A DNA stretch of 64,000 nucleotides from Verrucomicrobiia bacterium (GTDB taxonomy: Bacteria > Verrucomicrobiota > Verrucomicrobiia > Limisphaerales > UBA11358), in NCBI GenBank assembly GCA_036510395.1, contig DATCDZ010000152.1:4325-68324 (forward strand), in the 5' to 3' direction. Of this stretch, positions 9,683 to 19,581 are shown piece by piece. The notes beneath the pieces were generated by a model. It was not told where the DNA came from. It saw only the letters and a program-made list of their open reading frames with translations, and did no database searches. The position numbers and the translations under genes are program-made. Positions within the stretch are counted from its first letter, which is position 1. Every line of letters begins with the position of its first letter.

Positions 9683-12649
9683 ATGCTTGCACCGAAAGCC
9701 CAATACAACCCGGTTGACGCCAAAAAGTATTTCAAGGAACACCTGGCGGTCGGCGATTATTATGCCGAGGGGCAGACCGTTCCCGGCCAATGGATCGGCA
9801 AGGACGCGGAAGATTTGGGCTTGTCCGGCGTAACCACCACCGATGAGTTTGTCCGGCTCTGCGACAATCTCCATCCGCAAACCGGCGAACGGCTGACACT
9901 CCGGCAAAAAACCACGCGGATTGAAAAGGGGATTGATGGCGAAGAACGGCAAGCCGCCAATCGCCGGGTTTTTTACGATTTCACTTTTTCCCCGCCCAAA
10001 TCGGTTTCCATTGCCGCGCTGGTCGGCAACGACGCTCGGATTGTCGAGGCGCATGAGCAGGCCGTGACGGTGGCCATGCACCAGTTGCAAACCTTCGCGG
10101 CAACGCGCGTGCGGAAAAACGATGAATGCACGGACCGGCATACAGGCAACCTCGTGGCCGCGATGTTCCGGCATGACACCTCGCGCGCTTTAGACCCGCA
10201 TCTGCATACGCATTGCATCGTGTTCAACGCCACGTTTGACGCGGTGGAAAAGCAATGGAAGGCATTGCAGAACCATGAAATGTTCGCCGCGCAAAAATTT
10301 GTCGAGAATGTTTATTACCATGAACTCACGCGCGAAATGGTGAAGTGCGGCTATCAGATTGAAAACAAACCGCGCGGCGATTTTGAAATCAAGGGCGTCG
10401 CGTCGGAACTGATTGACAGGTTTTCCAAGCGGCACCGGGAGATTGACCGGAAAACCAGGGAACTGCTGGCGCGTGAACCGGAAAAGGCGGGCGACAACAT
10501 TGCGGCGATTCGGGAGAACATCGCGCACAAGGACCGGCCACGGAAAATCCGGGACATCGGTTTGGAAAAATTGCAAACGCTGTGGGACGGCCAGATGACA
10601 GCGGGCGAAAGGGCTTCGCTGGATGGGCTGACGGTGAAGCCGTCCGTCGCGCCCGTTTCCAGCGAGAAGATTTGCGAGCAGGCCGTGACGTGGGCGGAGC
10701 AACACCTGTTTGAACGTCATTCCATCGTCCATGAGCATGAACTGTGGCGGCACGCGCTGGAACGCGTCAGAGGGCAGGACGTTTTACTGGCGGACATTCA
10801 GGCCGTCACTCAAAAACGCGGCTATCTGCACTTCGACGAGCATCCCGGCAAGGTTTCCACGCGGGAGCATCTTGAACGTGAAATGGAAATTGTCCAGAAG
10901 GCCAAAGAGGGGATTGGCGAATGTCATCCGCTGGTCTGGCAACCGAAGCCCTTCAATCCCATGTTGGATGGGGAACAGCGCGAAGCCCTCGCCGCGCTGG
11001 TTTCCAATCGTAACCGGGTCGCGGTCTTTCGTGGCGGTGCCGGCACGGGCAAAAGTTTCGTGCTGCGCGAGCTGGTCGGGCAAATCCGCGACGGCGGGCG
11101 CGGCGTAGTCGTCCTCGCGCCGCAACGCCAGCAAGTGCTGGACATGGAACGGGACGGCTTTCCGTCGCCGCTGACGGTTGCCAGTTTTCTGCAAAAGAAA
11201 GAACTCCAAGAGGGAACGGTGGTGATCGTGGACGAGGCCGGGCAGATTGGGGGCAAGCCGATGTTGGAACTGCTCCGGCTGGTTTCTGAACGCAATGCGC
11301 GGCTGATTTTGTCGGGGGACACGCGCCAGCATGGGGCGGTTGAGGCGGGGGACGCGCTGCGGGCGATTGAAAAACATTCCGGCGTCTCGCCAGTGGAATT
11401 GACCAACATCCGCCGCCAGAATCCGGCGCTGGCGAAGTCAATCGAGGAGCGCAAGCATATCAAGGAATACCGTCAGGCCGTCGAGGCAGCGCGTGACGGC
11501 AAGTTCGCGGAATCGTTTGCACGGCTGGACAAATTGAAAGCGATTGAGTCCTGCACGCTGGCCGACAAGCATGAAAAGCTGACGGCGCGTTATCTGCAAC
11601 TGGTGAAAGATCATCAGTCCACCGTGGTCGTCTCGCAAAGCTGGAATGAGATTCACCAGGTCAACGACGCGATTCGTGTTGCGCTTAAAAATGAAAAGCT
11701 CGTCGGCGAAGCGGAAACCACGGTCACGGCATTTCAGCCGGTGGATTTGACGGAAGCGCAAAAGCGCGATGTCCGTTCTTATGATGCCAATACGGTGCTG
11801 GTGTTCAATCGTGACGTGCGCGGGTTCAAGGCCGGTGAATCGGCGCGGTTGAAATTGATTACCGACACGCATTTGCTGGTGGAAACGGACACGCGCATCG
11901 TCCCCATTTCCTTCAAGCAGTTGGACAAGCTGACGGCCTGCCAGCGCAAGGAATTGGCTTTGGCCGCTGGCGACAAGCTGCAACTCAAGGCGAATGGCCG
12001 CAGCGTGGAAAACCGCAAGCTGGTCAACGGCGAACTGGTCACGGTCAAGGCGGTCCAGCCTGACGGCCGCATTGCACTGGCGGATGGCAGGGTCTTGGAT
12101 AAAAACTTCCGGCAGTTCGTCCGGGGCTACGCCATCACGTCCTATGCGTCACAAGGCAAGTCGGTGGAACACGTTTTGTTTTCGGATTCGGCGGCGAAGG
12201 CCGCGACGAACCAGCAGCAATGGTATGTCACGATTTCGCGCGGCAAAAAGGGGATTCATATTTTCACCACGGACAAGGAGCAGTTGCGGGAGAACATCAC
12301 GCGCAGCGGGGATCGCCCATCGGTGGTGGATGTGCTGATGGCACATTACCGGAAACATGATTCGTTTTTTCGCATGATTGAACGGAGTTGGGGAACGCGG
12401 CTGGCGCTCACCATGACCAACAGCAAACGCGCCAGAGAATTTCGCGCGCTGCGCCAGCGGCAAAACCAAAGTCAGGCGCAAGCGCAAACTGAAACGATCA
12501 AGCAAACGGTTGAATCCAATGAGCCGCGCCAGCAACCCGTCCAGCCACCGGCGCAAAGCCACATGGCTGAAACCACGGAGCCGAAAATCAAGCCGCACCT
12601 GATTTTCCCGGAAGTCCCGAAAAAACAGTCGCGCGGTTACAGGCCGTGA
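9683..12649 (+). CDS. MobF-family relaxase (TrwC/TraI-like) fused to a RecD-like helicase
   Basis: N-terminus: DAKKYFKEHLAVGDYYAEG...GQWIGKDAEDLGLSG. Histidine triad: HDTSRALDPHLHTHCIVFNATF. Walker A: FRGGAGTGKS, with LILSGDTRQHGAVEAG. C-terminal helicase motif: ITSYASQGKSVEHVL...YVTISRGKKGIHIFT. Confidence 0.9.
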   Translation: MLAPKAQYNPVDAKKYFKEHLAVGDYYAEGQTVPGQWIGKDAEDLGLSGVTTTDEFVRLCDNLHPQTGERLTLRQKTTRIEKGIDGEERQAANRRVFYDFTFSPPKSVSIAALVGNDARIVEAHEQAVTVAMHQLQTFAATRVRKNDECTDRHTGNLVAAMFRHDTSRALDPHLHTHCIVFNATFDAVEKQWKALQNHEMFAAQKFVENVYYHELTREMVKCGYQIENKPRGDFEIKGVASELIDRFSKRHREIDRKTRELLAREPEKAGDNIAAIRENIAHKDRPRKIRDIGLEKLQTLWDGQMTAGERASLDGLTVKPSVAPVSSEKICEQAVTWAEQHLFERHSIVHEHELWRHALERVRGQDVLLADIQAVTQKRGYLHFDEHPGKVSTREHLEREMEIVQKAKEGIGECHPLVWQPKPFNPMLDGEQREALAALVSNRNRVAVFRGGAGTGKSFVLRELVGQIRDGGRGVVVLAPQRQQVLDMERDGFPSPLTVASFLQKKELQEGTVVIVDEAGQIGGKPMLELLRLVSERNARLILSGDTRQHGAVEAGDALRAIEKHSGVSPVELTNIRRQNPALAKSIEERKHIKEYRQAVEAARDGKFAESFARLDKLKAIESCTLADKHEKLTARYLQLVKDHQSTVVVSQSWNEIHQVNDAIRVALKNEKLVGEAETTVTAFQPVDLTEAQKRDVRSYDANTVLVFNRDVRGFKAGESARLKLITDTHLLVETDTRIVPISFKQLDKLTACQRKELALAAGDKLQLKANGRSVENRKLVNGELVTVKAVQPDGRIALADGRVLDKNFRQFVRGYAITSYASQGKSVEHVLFSDSAAKAATNQQQWYVTISRGKKGIHIFTTDKEQLRENITRSGDRPSVVDVLMAHYRKHDSFFRMIERSWGTRLALTMTNSKRAREFRALRQRQNQSQAQAQTETIKQTVESNEPRQQPVQPPAQSHMAETTEPKIKPHLIFPEVPKKQSRGYRP

Positions 12650-12656
12650 ACGGCGG

Positions 12657-12950
12657 TCAGTCCAGCGGGTAATCGTCGTGGTCATAATAGTCCGGCGGTT
12701 CCCACAACGGCGGGGCAAACGGTGGTGGTGGTGGCGTTCCCGGCAATTGAATGAAAATCGCTGGCCGGACGTGGGACATGGGTTTTCCTCTCTTTGGTCG
12801 CAATGCGCCGCATAATACCCACACCAAAAGAGCCAGCAAAAGATAGATGGCTCCGATGAGAAAATAGAGCGCATGGTCGTGAACGAATCCGTCAAGGTGT
12901 TTCAATCCCGACGTTTCCAGTTCGAGTGCCTTAATTTGCCAAGGTTGCAT
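12657..12950 (-). CDS. Small membrane protein with a Pro-rich acidic tail (hypothetical)
   Basis: Preferred start is ATG 12950, preceded by GGAGGA (12955-12960) directly after the integrase stop. TM segment: YFLIGAIYLLLALLVWVLCGAL. Tail: PPPPPFAPPLWEPPDYYDHDDYPLD. The track start at 13007 would overlap the integrase. Confidence 0.5.
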   Translation of the reverse strand: MQPWQIKALELETSGLKHLDGFVHDHALYFLIGAIYLLLALLVWVLCGALRPKRGKPMSHVRPAIFIQLPGTPPPPPFAPPLWEPPDYYDHDDYPLD

Positions 12951-12960
12951 GGTGTCCTCC

Positions 12961-14034
12961 TTATGCGGCAACGGCTTTCGCCGCTGGTTCGGGGTTGTGG
13001 CTTCCAATAATCACCTTCTGTTGCCGCTCGTATTCGCTCAAGGAAGGCATTTCCACCGGCGCTTTGCGGGAATAGGCCCGCGTCATGGCCTTGCTGTTGT
13101 GGCCAAGATTCACCTGGGCATACCGTTCGGGATAGCCCGCCGTTTTTGCCCGTTCTGCCCACGCGTAACGGTAGCTGTGCAGCGAGACGCCTTTGATGCC
13201 AAGTCCATCGCAGCGTTGTTTGAACTCCGTGGCGCGGTCACCAGAGCGCACGGTTCGCATATATGGAAACAAGGGGCCGCTCCCCGGCAAGTCGCGCAGG
13301 ATTTCCGCCATGTCTTCATCAAAACGCATGATGGCAATCGAGCCGGTCTTCTGGCGCGCATAGCTGATGACGTGGTGTTCCCAATCAACGTCCTCGGCGT
13401 TCAAGCCCGCCAGATCGGATTGCGATGCGCCCAAGTGCCACGCCAGTTTGTAGAACGCCTTGCGTTCGGGATTGTTCTCGCGGGCGACGATGGCCAGATG
13501 TTCCGCCAGCGTGATGCCGCGCTTCTCTTTGAACTCGACGGCGGGCCACTGGCGTTTCGGCACCAGCGGCCACGGCAGCCAGTTCATGTCCACGCAGAAA
13601 TTGTGCAACCGCCGGAGATAAACATTCGTCGAGACGGTTCCCATTTGCAGGACTTTCAGAATCGCTTCGCCCTTGCTTTCGATGATGACCTGCGGCAAGA
13701 GCATCGCCAGTGCCTTGTCCTTCGCGGCGGTTTTCCAGCGATGTTGATTCGCTCCCTGCTTGGTGCCAATCAACGACTCAATGGCGTTCTGCCATGTCCG
13801 CGTGGTCAAGCCCGTGTCCGAACCGGCCAGATACGCCTTGGCGATTTGCAGGTTAAGAACGGGCTGGCGTTCGGAGTTGTTCTTGGCCGCGACAACCTGC
13901 TTGGCATCGTCCTCATTGGCCGTGCCGAGACTGGTGCGCTTGCCGGTGCTGGTGTCCACGCAATAAAACTTATTGCCCCGGATACCACGACGAATTAAGC
14001 GATAACGTGTTTTCATAGTATTACGCAATCGCAA
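12961..14034 (-). CDS. int: Tyrosine recombinase / phage-type integrase
   Basis: C-terminal catalytic region: GVSLHSYRYAWAERA...NLGHNSKAMTRAYSR. The likely true start is ATG 14016 (MKTRYRLIRRG), since 14034 is a TTG. It lies 155 nt from the tRNA-Cys 3' end. Confidence 0.9.
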   Translation of the reverse strand: MRLRNTMKTRYRLIRRGIRGNKFYCVDTSTGKRTSLGTANEDDAKQVVAAKNNSERQPVLNLQIAKAYLAGSDTGLTTRTWQNAIESLIGTKQGANQHRWKTAAKDKALAMLLPQVIIESKGEAILKVLQMGTVSTNVYLRRLHNFCVDMNWLPWPLVPKRQWPAVEFKEKRGITLAEHLAIVARENNPERKAFYKLAWHLGASQSDLAGLNAEDVDWEHHVISYARQKTGSIAIMRFDEDMAEILRDLPGSGPLFPYMRTVRSGDRATEFKQRCDGLGIKGVSLHSYRYAWAERAKTAGYPERYAQVNLGHNSKAMTRAYSRKAPVEMPSLSEYERQQKVIIGSHNPEPAAKAVAA

Positions 14035-14059
14035 GAATAACTGAAGCCGGTTCCGCAGA

Positions 14060-14082
14060 GTTAGCGAGTAGTGGGCGGGTTA
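14060..14082 (-). promoter_or_regulatory. Element-specific conserved box upstream of the integrase
   Basis: GTTAGCGAGTAGTGGGCGGGTTA is identical over 23 nt to 7751-7773. In the gene direction it is TAACCCGCCCACTACTCGCTAAC, ending 43 nt before ATG 14016. Confidence 0.55.
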
Positions 14083-14188
14083 GTGCCGGTTACGCTAGAT
14101 TCTAACGGAGTAGATAAACTGGTGTCCGTTCTGGTGTCCTTTGACACCCTCGCACCTCTTAAACCATTGCTGCAATAACAGTTAGGAA

Positions 14189-14263
14189 TGGAGGCGGGAG
14201 TCGGAATCGAACCGACGAATGCAGCTTTTGCAGAGCCGTGCCTTACCACTTGGCTACCCCGCC
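14189..14263 (-). tRNA. tRNA-Cys (anticodon GCA), CCA encoded
   Basis: The reverse complement GGCGGGGTAGCCAAGTGGTAAGGCACGGCTCTGCAAAAGCTGCATTCGTCGGTTCGATTCCGACTCCCGCCTCCA folds by hand into a cloverleaf. It has a 7-bp acceptor stem, anticodon loop CUGCAAA and T-arm GTCGG-TTCGATT-CCGAC. Confidence 0.93.
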
Positions 14264-16077: not shown

Positions 16078-17097
16078 ATGAATAATATGAAATGTTTTGT
16101 TACCGGCGCTTCCGGCTTCATCGGCTCGAATCTCGTCCACGAACTTGTCGCGCACGGGCACAGCGTGAAGGCGCTGGTGCGCGCGGGAAGCAATCTGAGC
16201 GGACTCGACGGCACGCACGCCCAACTCGTCACGGGCGACGTGCTGGACCGCAAACTGCTAGAACGCGAGGTTGACGGCTGCGACTGGTGCTTTCACACGG
16301 CGGCGATTTATCAATTGTGGATGCCAGATTACGCACCGATGTATGAGGCCAACGTCGAGGGCACGCGCAACGTCCTCGAAGCCGCCGGCAAAGCCGGTTG
16401 CATCCGCACTGTTTATACCAGCACCGTCGGCTGCATCGGCTTGCCGAAGGAAAAAGACGGAAAAATCGTTCCGGCCAACGAAGGCGAAAAGGTTTCCGAA
16501 GGGGACATGACGAACGATTACAAACGCTCGAAATTCCGCGCGGAAGGCGTGGCGATTGATTTGTTCCGGAAAAGAGGTTTGCCCATCGTCATCGTCAATC
16601 CGTCCGCGCCCGTCGGCCCGCGCGACGCGAAACCGACGCCGACCGGCCAGATCATCGTGGATTATTTGAACCGGAAACTGCCGGCGTATCTGGAGACCGG
16701 GCTGAATTGGGTTCACGTCCGCGACGTTGCCGCCGGGCACATTCTTGCGGCTGAAAAAGGCGTCATCGGCGAGCGCTATATCCTGGGCAATATGCAGGGC
16801 AATTGGACGATGGAAGAAACGCTCGCCGCGCTGCAAGAGATCACCGGCATCGCCGCGCCGAAGACAAAAATTCCGCACTGGGTCGCGCTCGTCGCCGCAC
16901 ACGTCAACGAGGGCACTTCCTTCTTCACGAAAAATCCGCCCAAGGCGCCGCTCGCGGGCGTCCGCATGGCGAAGGAAAAAATGTGGTTCAATCCCGCAAA
17001 GGCCGTCCGCGAACTCGGCCTGCCGCAAACGCCCCCCAAACAGGCCTTCGCCGACGCCGTCGAATGGTTTCGCAAGAACGGGTATGCGAATAAATAA
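16078..17097 (+). CDS. NAD-dependent epimerase/dehydratase (HpnA / dihydroflavonol-reductase-like)
   Basis: Start chosen at MNNMKCFVTGASGFIGSNLV (Rossmann GxxGxxG). The track start 15889 overlaps the convergent TPR gene. Confidence 0.8.
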   Translation: MNNMKCFVTGASGFIGSNLVHELVAHGHSVKALVRAGSNLSGLDGTHAQLVTGDVLDRKLLEREVDGCDWCFHTAAIYQLWMPDYAPMYEANVEGTRNVLEAAGKAGCIRTVYTSTVGCIGLPKEKDGKIVPANEGEKVSEGDMTNDYKRSKFRAEGVAIDLFRKRGLPIVIVNPSAPVGPRDAKPTPTGQIIVDYLNRKLPAYLETGLNWVHVRDVAAGHILAAEKGVIGERYILGNMQGNWTMEETLAALQEITGIAAPKTKIPHWVALVAAHVNEGTSFFTKNPPKAPLAGVRMAKEKMWFNPAKAVRELGLPQTPPKQAFADAVEWFRKNGYANK

Positions 17098-17129
17098 AAG
17101 GCGTAATTTTCATCCGTGGCTGAATAAAC

Positions 17130-17192
17130 TCATCGCTCATCGCCCGCCAGTTTCCGCGCCGCCAGGATTTTTTGCGACGGCTTGCAAATCCA
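17130..17192 (-). pseudogene. Displaced duplicate of the last ~20 codons of tgt
   Basis: The minus-strand reading WICKPSQKILAARKLAGDER* compares with the tgt C-terminus NYKPSQKILAARKAASNER*. The DNA core GCCGCCAGGATTTTTTGCGA(C/A)GGCTTG is shared with 17788-17850. Confidence 0.7.
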
Positions 17193-17222
17193 GCCAATCC
17201 GGTGCATGATTCAAACAGCCGA

Positions 17223-17465
17223 ATGAAAGCGATTGCAAATCAAAAAAGTGTGTTGAGCGGACACATCGTGGCCGACCGGGAAATTCTCGGCGGCGAACCG
17301 GTGTTTCGCGGGACGCGCGTGCCAGTCGCGTCGCTGTTCGAGCATCTGGAAAGCGATTGTTTGCTGGACGAATTTCTTGAAAACTTTCCGACCGTCAGCC
17401 GCGCCGCAGCGGTGGCCGTGCTCATGGGCGCGCAGGAATTGACGCTCGAAAGGGCGCGTCGGTGA
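17223..17465 (+). CDS. DUF433-type antitoxin-like protein
   Basis: HIVADREILGGEPVFRGTRVPVASLFEHLESDCLLDEFLENFPTVS is the typical DUF433 pattern. Its stop overlaps the GTG of the next ORF (GTGA). Confidence 0.75.
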   Translation: MKAIANQKSVLSGHIVADREILGGEPVFRGTRVPVASLFEHLESDCLLDEFLENFPTVSRAAAVAVLMGAQELTLERARR

Positions 17466-17784
17466 AAGTGCTGGTGGACGAGTGCGTGCCGTTGAAACTG
17501 GTGCGTCTGCTCACCAGCCACAATTTCAGCACGCGCAGCAAAAAGGCTGGGATGGTTTCAGCAATGGAAAACTTCTCGCGCAAGCCGAGCCGGAATTTGA
17601 TCTGTTCCTGACCAGTGACCGCAACTTGCAGTATCAGCAAAATCTCAAAGGCCGGAAAATTGCGATCCTGCTTTTGTCCACAAATCACTGGCCGACTTTG
17701 AAAAAACACGTTGAATTGGTCCAAGCTGCGCTGGACAAAATTTCTTCGGGCGAATTTGCGCGCGTAGAAATTCCGAAGAATTAA
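17462..17784 (+). pseudogene. DUF5615 (PIN-like) toxin-like gene with a -1 frame break at an A5 run
   Basis: Frame A from GTG 17462 reads VKVLVDECVPLKLVRLLTSHNFSTRSKK. Frame B continues GWDGFSNGKLLAQAEPEFDLFLTSDRNLQYQQNLKGRKIAILLL. The join lies at AAAAA 17540-17544, and one extra A would restore a single ORF. Confidence 0.7.
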
Positions 17785-17787
17785 ATT

Positions 17788-18933
17788 TCATCGTTCATTA
17801 CTCGCCGCTTTCCTTGCCGCCAGGATTTTTTGCGAAGGCTTGTAGTTGGCGATGAAGTTGCGGTGGTAATCCGCGAACGTCCCCGCCGCGATCGCCGCGC
17901 GCACTTCGGTCATCACTTTCAGATACAGGTGCGAGTTGTGGACGCTCACCATGCGCAGGCCGAGGATTTCATTCGCGCGCAGCAGATGGCGCAGATACGC
18001 GCGCGTGAACGTGCGGCACGCATAACATTCGCAGCCTTCCTCGATCGGGCCGAAATCCGTCTTGTAACTCGCGCCCTTGAGACCGAACGCGCCAGTGTGC
18101 GTGACCGCCGTGCCGGTGCGCGCGATGCGCGTGGGCAGCACGCAGTCGAACATGTCCACGCCGCGCGCGATCAGCTCGACCATCTGCGCGGGCGTGCCGA
18201 GACCCATCGCGTAACGCGCTTTTTTTTCCGGCAAAAATGGGACGGCCAGTTCAATCGCCTTGAACATTTCCGGTTCCGGTTCGCCGACGCTCACGCCGCC
18301 GATGGCGTAACCGTCAAATTCCATTTCCACGAGCGCCTTGGCGCATTGCTCGCGCAACGCGGCGTCGCTGCCGCCCTGGACGATGCCGAAAACTTTCTGG
18401 CCGTCGGCGCGCGGCTGCTCGCGACATTCGCGCGCCCAGCGGATGGTGCGTTCGACGGCGAGGCGCTGCTCCTTCGCGGGCGCGTCGTGCGGCGGACATT
18501 CGTCGAACACCATCGCGATGTCCGAGCCGAGCACGCGCTGGATTTCCATGGATTCCTTCGGCCCGATAAATAAAAGCGAGCCGTCAAGGTGGGAACGGAA
18601 TTCCACGCCGTGTTCTTTTACTTTGCGAATTTTTGCAAGGCTGAAAACCTGGAAGCCGCCGCTGTCGGTGAGAATCGGCTTTTCCCAATTCATGAATTTG
18701 TGCAGGCCGCCGGCGGCGCGAATGATGTCGAGTCCGGGACGGAGGTTCAGATGGTAAGTGTTGCCGAGAATGATCTGCGTGCCCATCTCGTGAAGTTCAC
18801 GCGGGTCGAGCGCCTTGACGCTGGCCTGCGTGCCGACGGGCATGAACACGGGCGTCTCGATGACACCGCGCGTCGTGGTCAATCTGCCGAGGCGCGCTTT
18901 GGTATGCGAGTCGGTTTTGAGGAGTTCAAACAT
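17788..18933 (-). CDS. tgt: tRNA-guanine transglycosylase (queuine tRNA-ribosyltransferase)
   Basis: ARLGRLTTTRGVIETPVFMPVGTQASVKAL...ILGNTYHL...LTDSGGFQVFSL...CECYACRTFTRAYLRHL. Confidence 0.93.
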   Translation of the reverse strand: MFELLKTDSHTKARLGRLTTTRGVIETPVFMPVGTQASVKALDPRELHEMGTQIILGNTYHLNLRPGLDIIRAAGGLHKFMNWEKPILTDSGGFQVFSLAKIRKVKEHGVEFRSHLDGSLLFIGPKESMEIQRVLGSDIAMVFDECPPHDAPAKEQRLAVERTIRWARECREQPRADGQKVFGIVQGGSDAALREQCAKALVEMEFDGYAIGGVSVGEPEPEMFKAIELAVPFLPEKKARYAMGLGTPAQMVELIARGVDMFDCVLPTRIARTGTAVTHTGAFGLKGASYKTDFGPIEEGCECYACRTFTRAYLRHLLRANEILGLRMVSVHNSHLYLKVMTEVRAAIAAGTFADYHRNFIANYKPSQKILAARKAASNER

Positions 18934-18934
18934 T

Positions 18935-19327
18935 TCAGTAATTCAAAACCGGCACGCCGCCCCAGCGAATGATTTTTTTATCGCGCGTGACCAGCGTGAG
19001 CCGGTGAACAATCGCCGCAGCAACGATCAATTGATCGGCAGGATCAGTCGTGGTCAAACCGGCGGCGGCAAGTTTGCAGGATTCGTCGGCGATTTCAGGT
19101 GTGATTGCCAAAATGATTAGATTTTCCGAAAGCGAATCGTGCATCCATTGCAACGGTGAACGGTCAAGAGGCAATTTTTGATATTCAACAGCCTTGCAGA
19201 TTTCCCAAAACGAAATATCTAATAGAAACAAAGGTGTTTCAGGTTCCATTAAAAATTTATGACGCAAAGAAATTTTGTCAGCGGATGAAATAGTTTTCTA
19301 TGCATTGGCATCAAGCAGATGGCTCAT
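18935..19327 (-). pseudogene. VapC-like PIN-domain toxin with an in-frame TAG at codon 10
   Basis: ATG 19327 overlaps the antitoxin stop (ATGA). The reading is MSHLLDANA-TAG(19300-19298)-KTISSADKISLRHKFLMEPETPLFLLDISFWEI...DPADQLIVAAAIVHRLTLVTRDKKI in a single frame. Confidence 0.7.
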
Positions 19328-19581
19328 TGCGTGGCTTTCCATTTCACATCCGGCCTGCCCAAATCTTTCAAAATGGAGCCGCGCGTCGCGCCATAAAGCG
19401 CGCCGGTTTGATTTTTTTTGGAAAGGATGTATTCCGATTTGCCGCGACGAATCGTGACTTTCTCGCCACGGTCGGCGGCGGAAAAAACCCGTTCTGGCGA
19501 ACGATAAAGAGCTGTCGCGGTTGCAGTCATCAGATAAACAGTATGATTGAACTGTTGCCGTGTCAATTGCAAGTCCGGCAA
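19324..19581 (-). CDS. Phd/YefM-like antitoxin
   Basis: TATALYRSPERVFSAADRGEKVTIRRGKSEYILS. The probable start is the internal ATG 19530 (MTATATAL). Confidence 0.6.
   Translation of the reverse strand: MPDLQLTRQQFNHTVYLMTATATALYRSPERVFSAADRGEKVTIRRGKSEYILSKKNQTGALYGATRGSILKDLGRPDVKWKATQ

Follow-up and report, generated by a model that had tools for sequence, protein, structure and literature searches.

INTRODUCTION

Toxin-antitoxin (TA) islets are proposed to spread by recombination at the core genes that flank them, and within them the toxin erodes first (PMC13617665). Belot et al. (2026, Mol Biol Evol, PMC13617665) cite Hayes and Van Melderen (2011) for the islet concept itself. How chromosomal TA modules move without a mobility gene is still being worked out, and the sole flanking duplicate described in Photorhabdus, a res-like palindrome of 24 bp, has a link to Tn3 elements (PMC13617665). 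Here we describe a TA pair of the DUF433/DUF5615 type that lies between two copies of the 3' end of tgt, the gene for queuine tRNA-ribosyltransferase, in a 64-kb stretch of DNA from a Verrucomicrobiia bacterium. This whole stretch is called the window; positions are window coordinates unless a related locus is named, and related loci carry L-numbers.

Minimal mobile elements of Neisseria are said to go back to Saunders and Snyder in 2002. In such elements, the cassettes lie between conserved genes and are swapped when transforming DNA recombines homologously (PMC3787668). Displacement has been described for the effector-immunity genes of type VI secretion systems (T6SS): a conserved upstream region serves as the anchor, the far side is joined illegitimately, the old 3' end and the former cassette are pushed back, and arrays arise (Kirchberger et al., 2017, Sci Rep, PMC5361080). 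Orphan 3' regions of Rhs and contact-dependent inhibition systems are covered in the literature cited in that report (PMC5361080).

RESULTS

The 3' end of tgt occurs twice

In the window, tgt (17788..18933, minus strand) is intact and encodes a protein of 381 amino acids (aa) that matches Pfam TGT at 1.4e-156. Tgt proteins with 93 to 98% identity were found in metagenome-assembled genomes of related Verrucomicrobia; an exact-sequence look-up of the window's own Tgt returned no match. A repeat search of the window paired the last 55 nt of the gene (17788..17842, minus strand; the proximal copy) with 17130..17184 (minus strand; the distal copy), ungapped, at 84% identity and a spacing of 658 nt. 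This pair at the tgt end is the only one of its kind across the 64 kb. Its exact core of 20 nt, GCCGCCAGGATTTTTTGCGA, occurs twice in the window, where 0.07 matches with up to three mismatches would be expected by chance, and semi-global alignment of the tgt end with the distal region scored 84, versus 30.5 ± 4.7 for shuffled sequences (n = 2,000). A preliminary description of this DNA had reported that the end of tgt recurs at 17130 and had left open whether the similarity is significant; the repeat is real, and chance similarity of the copies is rejected. Read on the minus strand, the proximal copy ends in KPSQKILAARKAASNER and the distal copy in KPSQKILAARKLAGDER, each followed by a stop, in exact agreement with the peptides given in that description.

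The proximal copy is the present functional end of tgt and is contiguous with the cassette; the distal copy is now noncoding. Past the stop, the two stay similar for about 8 to 10 nt (AATTTAATTC versus GTTTATTC). No hairpin, inverted repeat, or core-type structure was found in either copy, with DNA folding z-scores of 0.74 and -0.92. Between the old tgt stop and the stop of the next gene lies a spacer (17098..17129) that holds the CAGCCACGGATG motif of the clade, which resembles repetitive extragenic palindromic (REP) sequences; alignment matches it to the tgt-epimerase spacer of L119 and to what comes after the tgt stop in L002, L004, L007, and L023. Short REP-like motifs of the form (T)AGCCACGGATGAACACGGAT stand at 17098-17129 in the window and behind the tgt stop in many relatives (L002, L004, L007, L023, L025, and L103), and they occur within the cassette spacer of L007 as well. 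A 25-codon open reading frame (ORF) at 17130-17207 (minus strand), MHRIGWICKPSQKILAARKLAGDER plus stop, begins with an ATG in the upstream region of the cassette and runs in frame through the displaced tgt end. Its start region, ATGCACCGGATTGG, is kept in other cassette copies and coincides with the putative -10 box of the TA operon on the opposite strand; the ORF is probably incidental.

A relative without the cassette and the origin of the two tgt ends

Which of the two ends belonged to this lineage before the cassette arrived? The loci used for comparison are from uncultured Verrucomicrobia that carry the label subdivision 3, Limisphaerales, or Pedosphaera. Where a conserved neighbor can be recognized, the usual order is tgt, about 45 to 100 nt, grx, and panC. 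The window has an NAD-dependent epimerase/dehydratase gene (16078..17097, plus strand; Pfam Epimerase, 2.5e-33) downstream of tgt and convergent with it, an arrangement that we found only in the window's own species (L081 to L086), in its sister lineage (L087 to L089), and in L119. This gene would thus be the downstream neighbor of the recipient lineage.

L119 has the convergent tgt and epimerase genes of the window, no cassette, and a single tgt end, reading KLAGDER before the stop. A cassette-free relative with both tgt-end copies, which would have spoken against an insertion, is not what L119 presents. Its tgt end is identical to the distal copy at 52/55 positions (23/24 over the last 24 nt) and to the proximal copy at 43/55, and its spacer (ATTTATTCAGCCAGGGATGAAAAT) matches the sequence behind the distal copy. 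The proximal copy is closer to the tgt ends of other carriers: it agrees with those of L092 and L187 at 48 to 49 of 55 positions, 22/24 in the last 24 nt. Three codons illustrate the difference, since the proximal copy has GCG GCG AGT where L119 and the distal copy have CTG GCG GGC. Four cassette carriers (L087, L090, L092, and L187) have GCG GCG AGT in their tgt ends, and so do L107 and L108, whose TA cassette is a different one. The match of L119's single end to the distal copy argues that the latter was the lineage's original tgt terminus. On this comparison, the distal copy is the displaced native terminus, and the functional proximal terminus arrived with the cassette. The earlier proposal that the insert supplies the terminus of its target is thereby borne out, with the proximal end as the imported one.

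The tgt gene of L119 (1560..2744 of that locus) differs from the window's in encoding 394 aa rather than 381. At about 1990-2060 it reads PPVVVGQASSLSKNRQDACSTLRH in place of HDAPAKEQRL, as if a repeat element had entered a conserved region in a small in-frame insertion.

A half-decayed TA pair lies between the copies

Only two genes, small, adjacent, and co-directional, occupy the ~600 nt between the copies. The antitoxin gene (DUF433; 17223..17465, plus strand) encodes 80 aa and matches Pfam DUF433 at 6.5e-15 (55.1 bits versus a cut-off of 23.6). The GTG start of the toxin gene (DUF5615, PIN-like; 17462..17784, plus strand) overlaps the antitoxin stop as GTGA, and 3 nt separate its own stop from that of tgt. 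The orthologues of L087, L090, and L092 are intact and 107 aa long, and alignment with them revealed a 1-nt deletion after 17532. Neither half of the split ORF matches Pfam, and the DUF5615 match (1.2e-6, 28.8 bits versus a cut-off of 23.8) appears only after the frameshift is repaired. Window positions 17100-17860 are identical at 761/761 nt in six independent assemblies, frameshift included, and a sequencing error is therefore not the explanation. These data identify the pair as a half-decayed type II TA module whose antitoxin gene reads as intact. The preliminary description was thus right that the two genes, and no recombinase, fill the interval, but its DUF5615 gene is a pseudogene.

Homologues of the DUF433 protein number more than 3,000, and the closest all adjoin a DUF5615 gene. 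An exact-sequence look-up of the 97-aa DUF433 ORF gave no match; the form on record is the 80-aa one that starts at the ATG at 17223. A sigma-70 promoter scan of 17000-18000 returned nothing; the candidate TTGCAA (17182-17187), 17 nt, CATGAT (17205-17210) agrees at only 8/12 positions and is a guess. The cassette had no blastn match in plasmid and phage collections, and an Rfam scan of the window returned a tRNA-Cys only. At L091 (525-1572 of that locus), an insertion sequence (IS) of the IS630 family, with a DDE_3 transposase and a helix-turn-helix ORF, breaks a DUF5615 toxin gene around codon 65, a second, independent inactivation of the toxin that left the DUF433 antitoxin intact.

Cassette boundaries and the junction with tgt

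The closest DUF433 homologues, 85 to 94% identical, lie in three settings. The cassette is found directly behind the tgt stop, either in the grx-panC context (L090, L092 to L094, and L182 to L184) or in the epimerase context (L087 to L089); beside a major facilitator superfamily transporter gene (L095 to L101); and beside xseA (L186). In every context, cassette homology stops near the toxin stop on one side. The other edge, in tgt orientation, reads TTTGCAAG(C/T)(C/T)G and overlaps the weak -35-like TTGCAA; nine contexts share this TTTGCAAG(Y)(Y)G edge, among them two with no tgt nearby (TTTGCAAGCCGCGCC in L095 and TTTGCAAGCTGCG in L186).

At the start of the window's distal copy, tgt reads TACAAGCCGTCGC. 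The cassette edge and tgt (TACAAGCCG) thus share 4 to 7 bases, depending on the donor variant, and the junction between cassette and displaced tgt end (17178..17184, minus strand) is CAAGCCG, a string common to the cassette's own end and to the tgt codons K-P.

The same cassette stands beside tgt without a duplication in L090, L092, and L182, all with grx-panC downstream, and no significant second tgt-end copy was found in the grx-context carriers. A degenerate distal copy considered at L090 was rejected, as it consists mostly of native spacer common to L002, L108, and L178.

Other TA families occupy the same site

Duplicated tgt ends with differing boundaries occur in four further contexts, in which the cargo belongs to two other TA families. 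A ParE_like (PF24732) toxin gene and a gene for a 73-aa antitoxin, co-directional with tgt, lie between duplicated tgt ends in three of these contexts, with duplications of about 86 nt in L007 (reaching 17 nt beyond the stop), 71 nt at 89% identity in L091, and 70 nt in L187/L188. All three share one junction, in which the ParE stop TGA is followed by (A)CTTCATCGC. L007's own tgt has GAT TTC at the position of this junction, but its distal copy starts with AAC TTC, like the window's clade. Therefore, the ParE_like junction seems to have formed once and then moved. In L107, a duplication of 51 nt flanks a ParE_toxin (PF05016)/Unstab_antitox pair. L108 has this cassette without a duplication, about 93% identical to that of L107 as estimated by eye rather than computed; grx follows about 1.5 kb downstream of tgt in L108, and L107 runs into unrelated sequence.

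L091 carries two cassettes in a row. Its order is tgt, the ParE TA pair, the old tgt end, and an older TA pair, with the distal copy leading directly into the 3' end of a DUF5615/DUF433 cassette, the one broken by the IS630-type element. Judged by this order, the ParE cassette was inserted ahead of a resident DUF5615/DUF433 cassette, and an array resulted.

The slot also holds cassettes without a duplication, namely a second DUF433/DUF5615 type (L002) and a distant ParE_like type (L102 and L105). About a quarter of the tgt-grx intervals, by count, exceed 200 nt, including those of most close relatives of the window. Cargo other than TA genes occurs there as well: a membrane protein of ~146 aa with C-terminal zinc ribbons (L002, 3190-4294; L090, 4440-4985) and a membrane protein of 151 aa (L108, 5783-6238). 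Ahead of this cargo a spacer, GGCTGGACAGAAACTG..GGCAAAATAAAGT, is conserved; it seems to bear a faint likeness to the tgt end. The largest tgt-grx interval, 5.5 kb in L019, was considered as an island and rejected, since on inspection, rather than by Pfam scan, its ORFs look like housekeeping genes (among them pyrF, fabF, and fabG) with no integrase-like ORF present.

A PemK/DUF2281 TA pair lies between direct repeats of its own in L095 (5543-6410) and L097 (5473-6218). In L095 the repeats comprise 127 nt at 76% and 49 nt at 84% identity and represent the 3' end of the PemK gene itself plus what lies behind it. Upstream of the intact PemK/DUF2281 operon is a 44-aa ORF, the remnant of an older PemK 3' end. 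The same principle of displacement may be at work here, with the toxin gene as the anchor.

A proposed recombination anchored in tgt, with an illegitimate join

How did the native tgt end come to lie behind the cassette? The reading that we favor, and consider somewhat better supported than all others taken together, is that the TA islet came in by recombination, with one side anchored in tgt and the other closed by a microhomology join. Several lines of evidence bear on it. Measured from the stop, the repeats start at -55, -51, or -70 nt according to junction type, and on the 3' side they end between 0 and +17. Together with the optional presence of the repeat and the lack of folding, these variable boundaries argue against an integrase, a transposase, or an integron; with the microhomology, they point to homology-anchored recombination with an illegitimate join. 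The preliminary description had read the locus as the footprint of a site-specific insertion at the tgt 3' end. Insertion is upheld by the single tgt end of L119, but site specificity is not: the starts differ, the duplication is absent in L090, L092, L182, and L108, no hairpin or core structure is present, and the junction falls on a short match between cassette and tgt.

The downstream context tells the same story, because loci with the duplication differ in it from carriers without (the window and L087 versus L090, L092, and L182; L107 versus L108), as expected if homology were available on the tgt side only. The codons that differ between the copies are largely synonymous: 5/5 in L007 (P = 6e-4), 4/4 in L107 (P = 0.004), 4/6 in L091, and 4/7 in the window. 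By this measure the copies differ as two alleles of a functional gene do, and free decay is seen only in the distal copy of L087, which has an internal stop. Between relatives, tgt identity ranges from 82 to 98% per 150 nt, a mosaic pattern from which we conclude that homologous exchange at the tgt locus is frequent.

The starting point would have been the arrangement seen in L119, a tgt ending in KLAGDER, a spacer of about 32 nt, and the convergent epimerase gene. The donor would have been a relative with the DUF5615/DUF433 cassette already in place 3 nt behind its tgt stop. On the left side, a homologous crossover within tgt would have imported the donor terminus, KAAS(D/N)ER plus stop. On the right side the recipient would have had no matching downstream sequence, and the join would have been illegitimate, at a 4- to 7-nt match, CAAG(CCG), between the cassette's own end at TTGCAA (the possible weak -35 box) and the tgt codons K-P, 55 nt before the recipient stop. 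Such an event would leave what the window presents, an intact tgt with an imported end and, behind the cassette, the 55 nt that used to end the recipient's gene, now one copy of a direct repeat. Later, the 1-nt deletion inactivated the toxin in the window's species, and in the sister lineage L087 the relic is decaying. One-sided homology, microhomology at the joint, and the old end behind the insert are the marks of homology-facilitated illegitimate recombination, and all three are found here; we infer that the first event was of this kind, with tgt as the anchor and CAAG(CCG) as the join.

From tgt through the cassette and on into the distal copy, as far as its first ~57 nt, L091 and L187 are 92 to 98% identical; the match then collapses inside that copy, and beyond the break L091 has the old resident tgt end ahead of the older cassette. 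The displaced end therefore served as a recombination substrate. On the evidence of these related loci, rather than of the window's own cassette, the displaced end may act as a second homology arm within tgt, and ordinary homologous recombination at both arms could then carry a cassette into relatives, regardless of their downstream sequence. For the ParE_like cassette, such spread appears to have taken place. A bolder generalization, which we put forward only tentatively, is that the TA cassettes of this clade are recombinase-free mobile elements with a split, circularly permuted tgt terminus: one side would have the final ~20 nt with the stop and the other the ~50 to 60 nt before them, so that both arms belong to one gene. 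If so, host RecA alone could insert a cassette into any related genome, irrespective of the downstream sequence, and leave tgt intact, and arrays would form with tgt-end copies between their members, an integron-like outcome without an integrase.

Several observations weigh against an acquisition anchored in tgt and closed by microhomology. The left crossover could not be located within tgt by sliding-window identity or by listing variable sites, since the gene is too mosaic, and neither a donor genome nor a recombination intermediate was observed. Recombination between the repeats could just as well have removed the cassette from L119, which would establish that it is mobile without showing which way events ran. 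The window and L090 have diverged similarly in cassette and tgt (88.8 versus 89.0%), which allows partly vertical descent with repeated loss. The cassettes observed to date in the tgt context end in CAAGTCGCC and share only four exact bases (CAAG) with tgt, and the 7-nt match requires a donor with the CAAGCCG variant, seen only in L095. In all three sense-oriented contexts, the toxin stop lies 0 to 4 nt from the distal copy, a tidiness that random illegitimate joining does not predict.

One potential alternative is a RecA-mediated single crossover of the Campbell type, in which a circle of ~660 bp, made of the cassette and one tgt end, loops out between the repeats and reintegrates at the end of tgt, in its own genome or in that of a relative. 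The order repeat-cassette-repeat is the exact product expected, and the empty site of L119 could be the product of looping out. In the comparison of L091 with L187, moreover, the traveling parts are the last ~19 nt of the proximal copy and the first ~57 nt of the distal copy, which together make up a single tgt end in circularly permuted form, the switch near -19 to -13 being common to both; this coincident switch point may also stem from later shuffling of alleles in a mosaic tgt. A homology of 55 nt lies near the minimum length for efficient recombination by RecA, small nonreplicating circles are unlikely vehicles between cells, and neither the origin of the first duplication nor the duplication-free copies of the same cassettes would be explained. 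A crossover with a small circle is thus possible and hard to tell apart from recombination anchored in tgt, but we consider it rather unlikely. The pattern could otherwise go back to a single ancient in-place duplication of the tgt end in the ancestor of the carriers, as a long target-site or tandem duplication, after which the distal copy would have decayed neutrally, with gene conversion at times. The similar divergence of cassette and tgt between carriers fits such a history, as does a gradient in the preservation of the distal copy from the window to L087, L090 (weak, p 0.0015), and L092 (none, p 0.47). However, the L090 "remnant" is largely native spacer, the differences between copies are mostly synonymous, and lengths of 51, 55, and 70 to 86 nt fit no fixed staggered cut. 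The distal copy matches the tgt end in use in L119, and the functional proximal copy carries four nucleotide changes in two codons that match other natural alleles, the reverse of what duplication in place with later decay would give; changes of this origin, with differences that are allele-like, exclude in-place duplication followed by drift. L119 thus largely refutes this history by its sequence, and we give it hardly any weight.

Direct repeats of a gene's 3' end around an insert are the classic signature of integrase islands. Could an integrase acting in trans have placed the cassette, with the cassette as a remnant or cis-mobilizable passenger and the repeats as attL and attR? A tyrosine recombinase gene (12961..14034; Pfam Phage_integrase, 1e-9) does lie 3.1 kb away, but it sits by a tRNA-Cys and a TrwC-type relaxase in a separate element, and four unrelated genes intervene (an mtnA-like gene, a tetratricopeptide repeat gene, the epimerase gene, and the tRNA). 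The varying repeat ends, the optional second copy, and the absence of a hairpin or inverted-repeat core are at odds with att sites. No integrase family appears in the precomputed Pfam annotations of the cassette contigs, and the IS630-type transposase of L091 is a separate insertion. We regard integrase action as highly improbable. Target-site duplication by a transposon or IS was rejected on the variable length of 51 to 86 nt and the absence of terminal inverted repeats and of a transposase, and an integron cassette was rejected because the copies show neither attC-like folding nor an inverted repeat.

Neighboring elements in the window

The tyrosine recombinase gene adjoins the tRNA-Cys (14189-14263), and a relaxase-helicase gene of the TrwC/AAA_30 type (9683..12649; 988 aa) lies beyond it. 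The region 9683-14263 is probably an integrative mobilizable or conjugative element at tRNA-Cys. A second tRNA-Cys 3' end, which would mark the far limit of the element, was not found in the window.

On the other side of tgt lies a second TA-like islet (18935-19581, minus strand), in which an 85-aa ORF (19324..19581) comes ahead of a PIN-domain gene (18935..19267; Pfam PIN, 5e-8) whose stop codon falls 1 nt before the tgt ATG. The pair is present in L004 and absent in L087 and L002, which have a REP-like palindromic spacer there. No duplication was seen at the borders of this islet.

DISCUSSION

The locus and its relatives form a readable natural record of how a TA islet can be added to a chromosome. 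A conserved neighbor would serve as the anchor, and a spare gene end from the donor means that the insertion costs nothing. The record takes in an empty site, carriers that have the duplication and others that lack it, three TA families at one gene end, and an array of two cassettes, which makes the mechanism testable, and it points to a route by which TA modules could spread without a recombinase of their own. It also holds two warnings for annotation: a duplicated gene end around an insert is, taken alone, no proof of an integrase, and the TA pair found here is already half dead. We found no report in the literature of tgt as an integration site.

Like TA islets, the locus has a two-gene TA pair alone between housekeeping genes, without a mobility gene and with a patchy distribution among relatives. 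The site has a high turnover, with different TA families in different genomes, and the toxin is lost first with the antitoxin left intact, again as in TA islets. Unlike them, the window bears a mark of its insertion, a second copy of the last 55 nt of the neighboring core gene, and such duplicates recur with three TA families at one gene end. Genomic islands and cis-mobilizable elements at gene 3' ends, with their attL and attR sites, likewise insert at the end of a gene, keep it intact, and produce direct repeats; the window locus differs in its lack of a recombinase, its variable boundaries, its optional repeat, and the microhomology at its junction. Integron TA cassettes share the compact layout from promoter to stop, the position of the newest cassette nearest the insertion point, and, as in L091, repeats between the members of an array, but here the repeats are copies of a gene end without attC-like folding. 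No integron integrase was identified and no integrase gene adjoins tgt in the window, although no search specific to IntI was made.

Minimal mobile elements resemble this system in placing varied cassettes in one slot by host recombination only. They differ in needing both flanking genes to be conserved and in leaving no duplication, whereas here both arms can lie in one gene. A parallel in mechanics is displacement at T6SS and Rhs loci, where the newcomer also lies next to a conserved gene, arrays build up as in L091, and displaced fragments can recombine again. There, however, the duplicated 3' region is that of the toxin gene itself, and the retained immunity genes are under selection. At the window locus, the duplicated piece comes from the unrelated housekeeping gene tgt, the cargo is a self-contained TA operon that can stand in either orientation, and the displaced end can act as a portable arm. 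TA islets and displacement arrays are thus already known; what appears to be new, as read from these sequences, is the duplicated end of an unrelated housekeeping gene, a complete TA operon as the cargo, and a displaced end that may travel with it as a portable arm.

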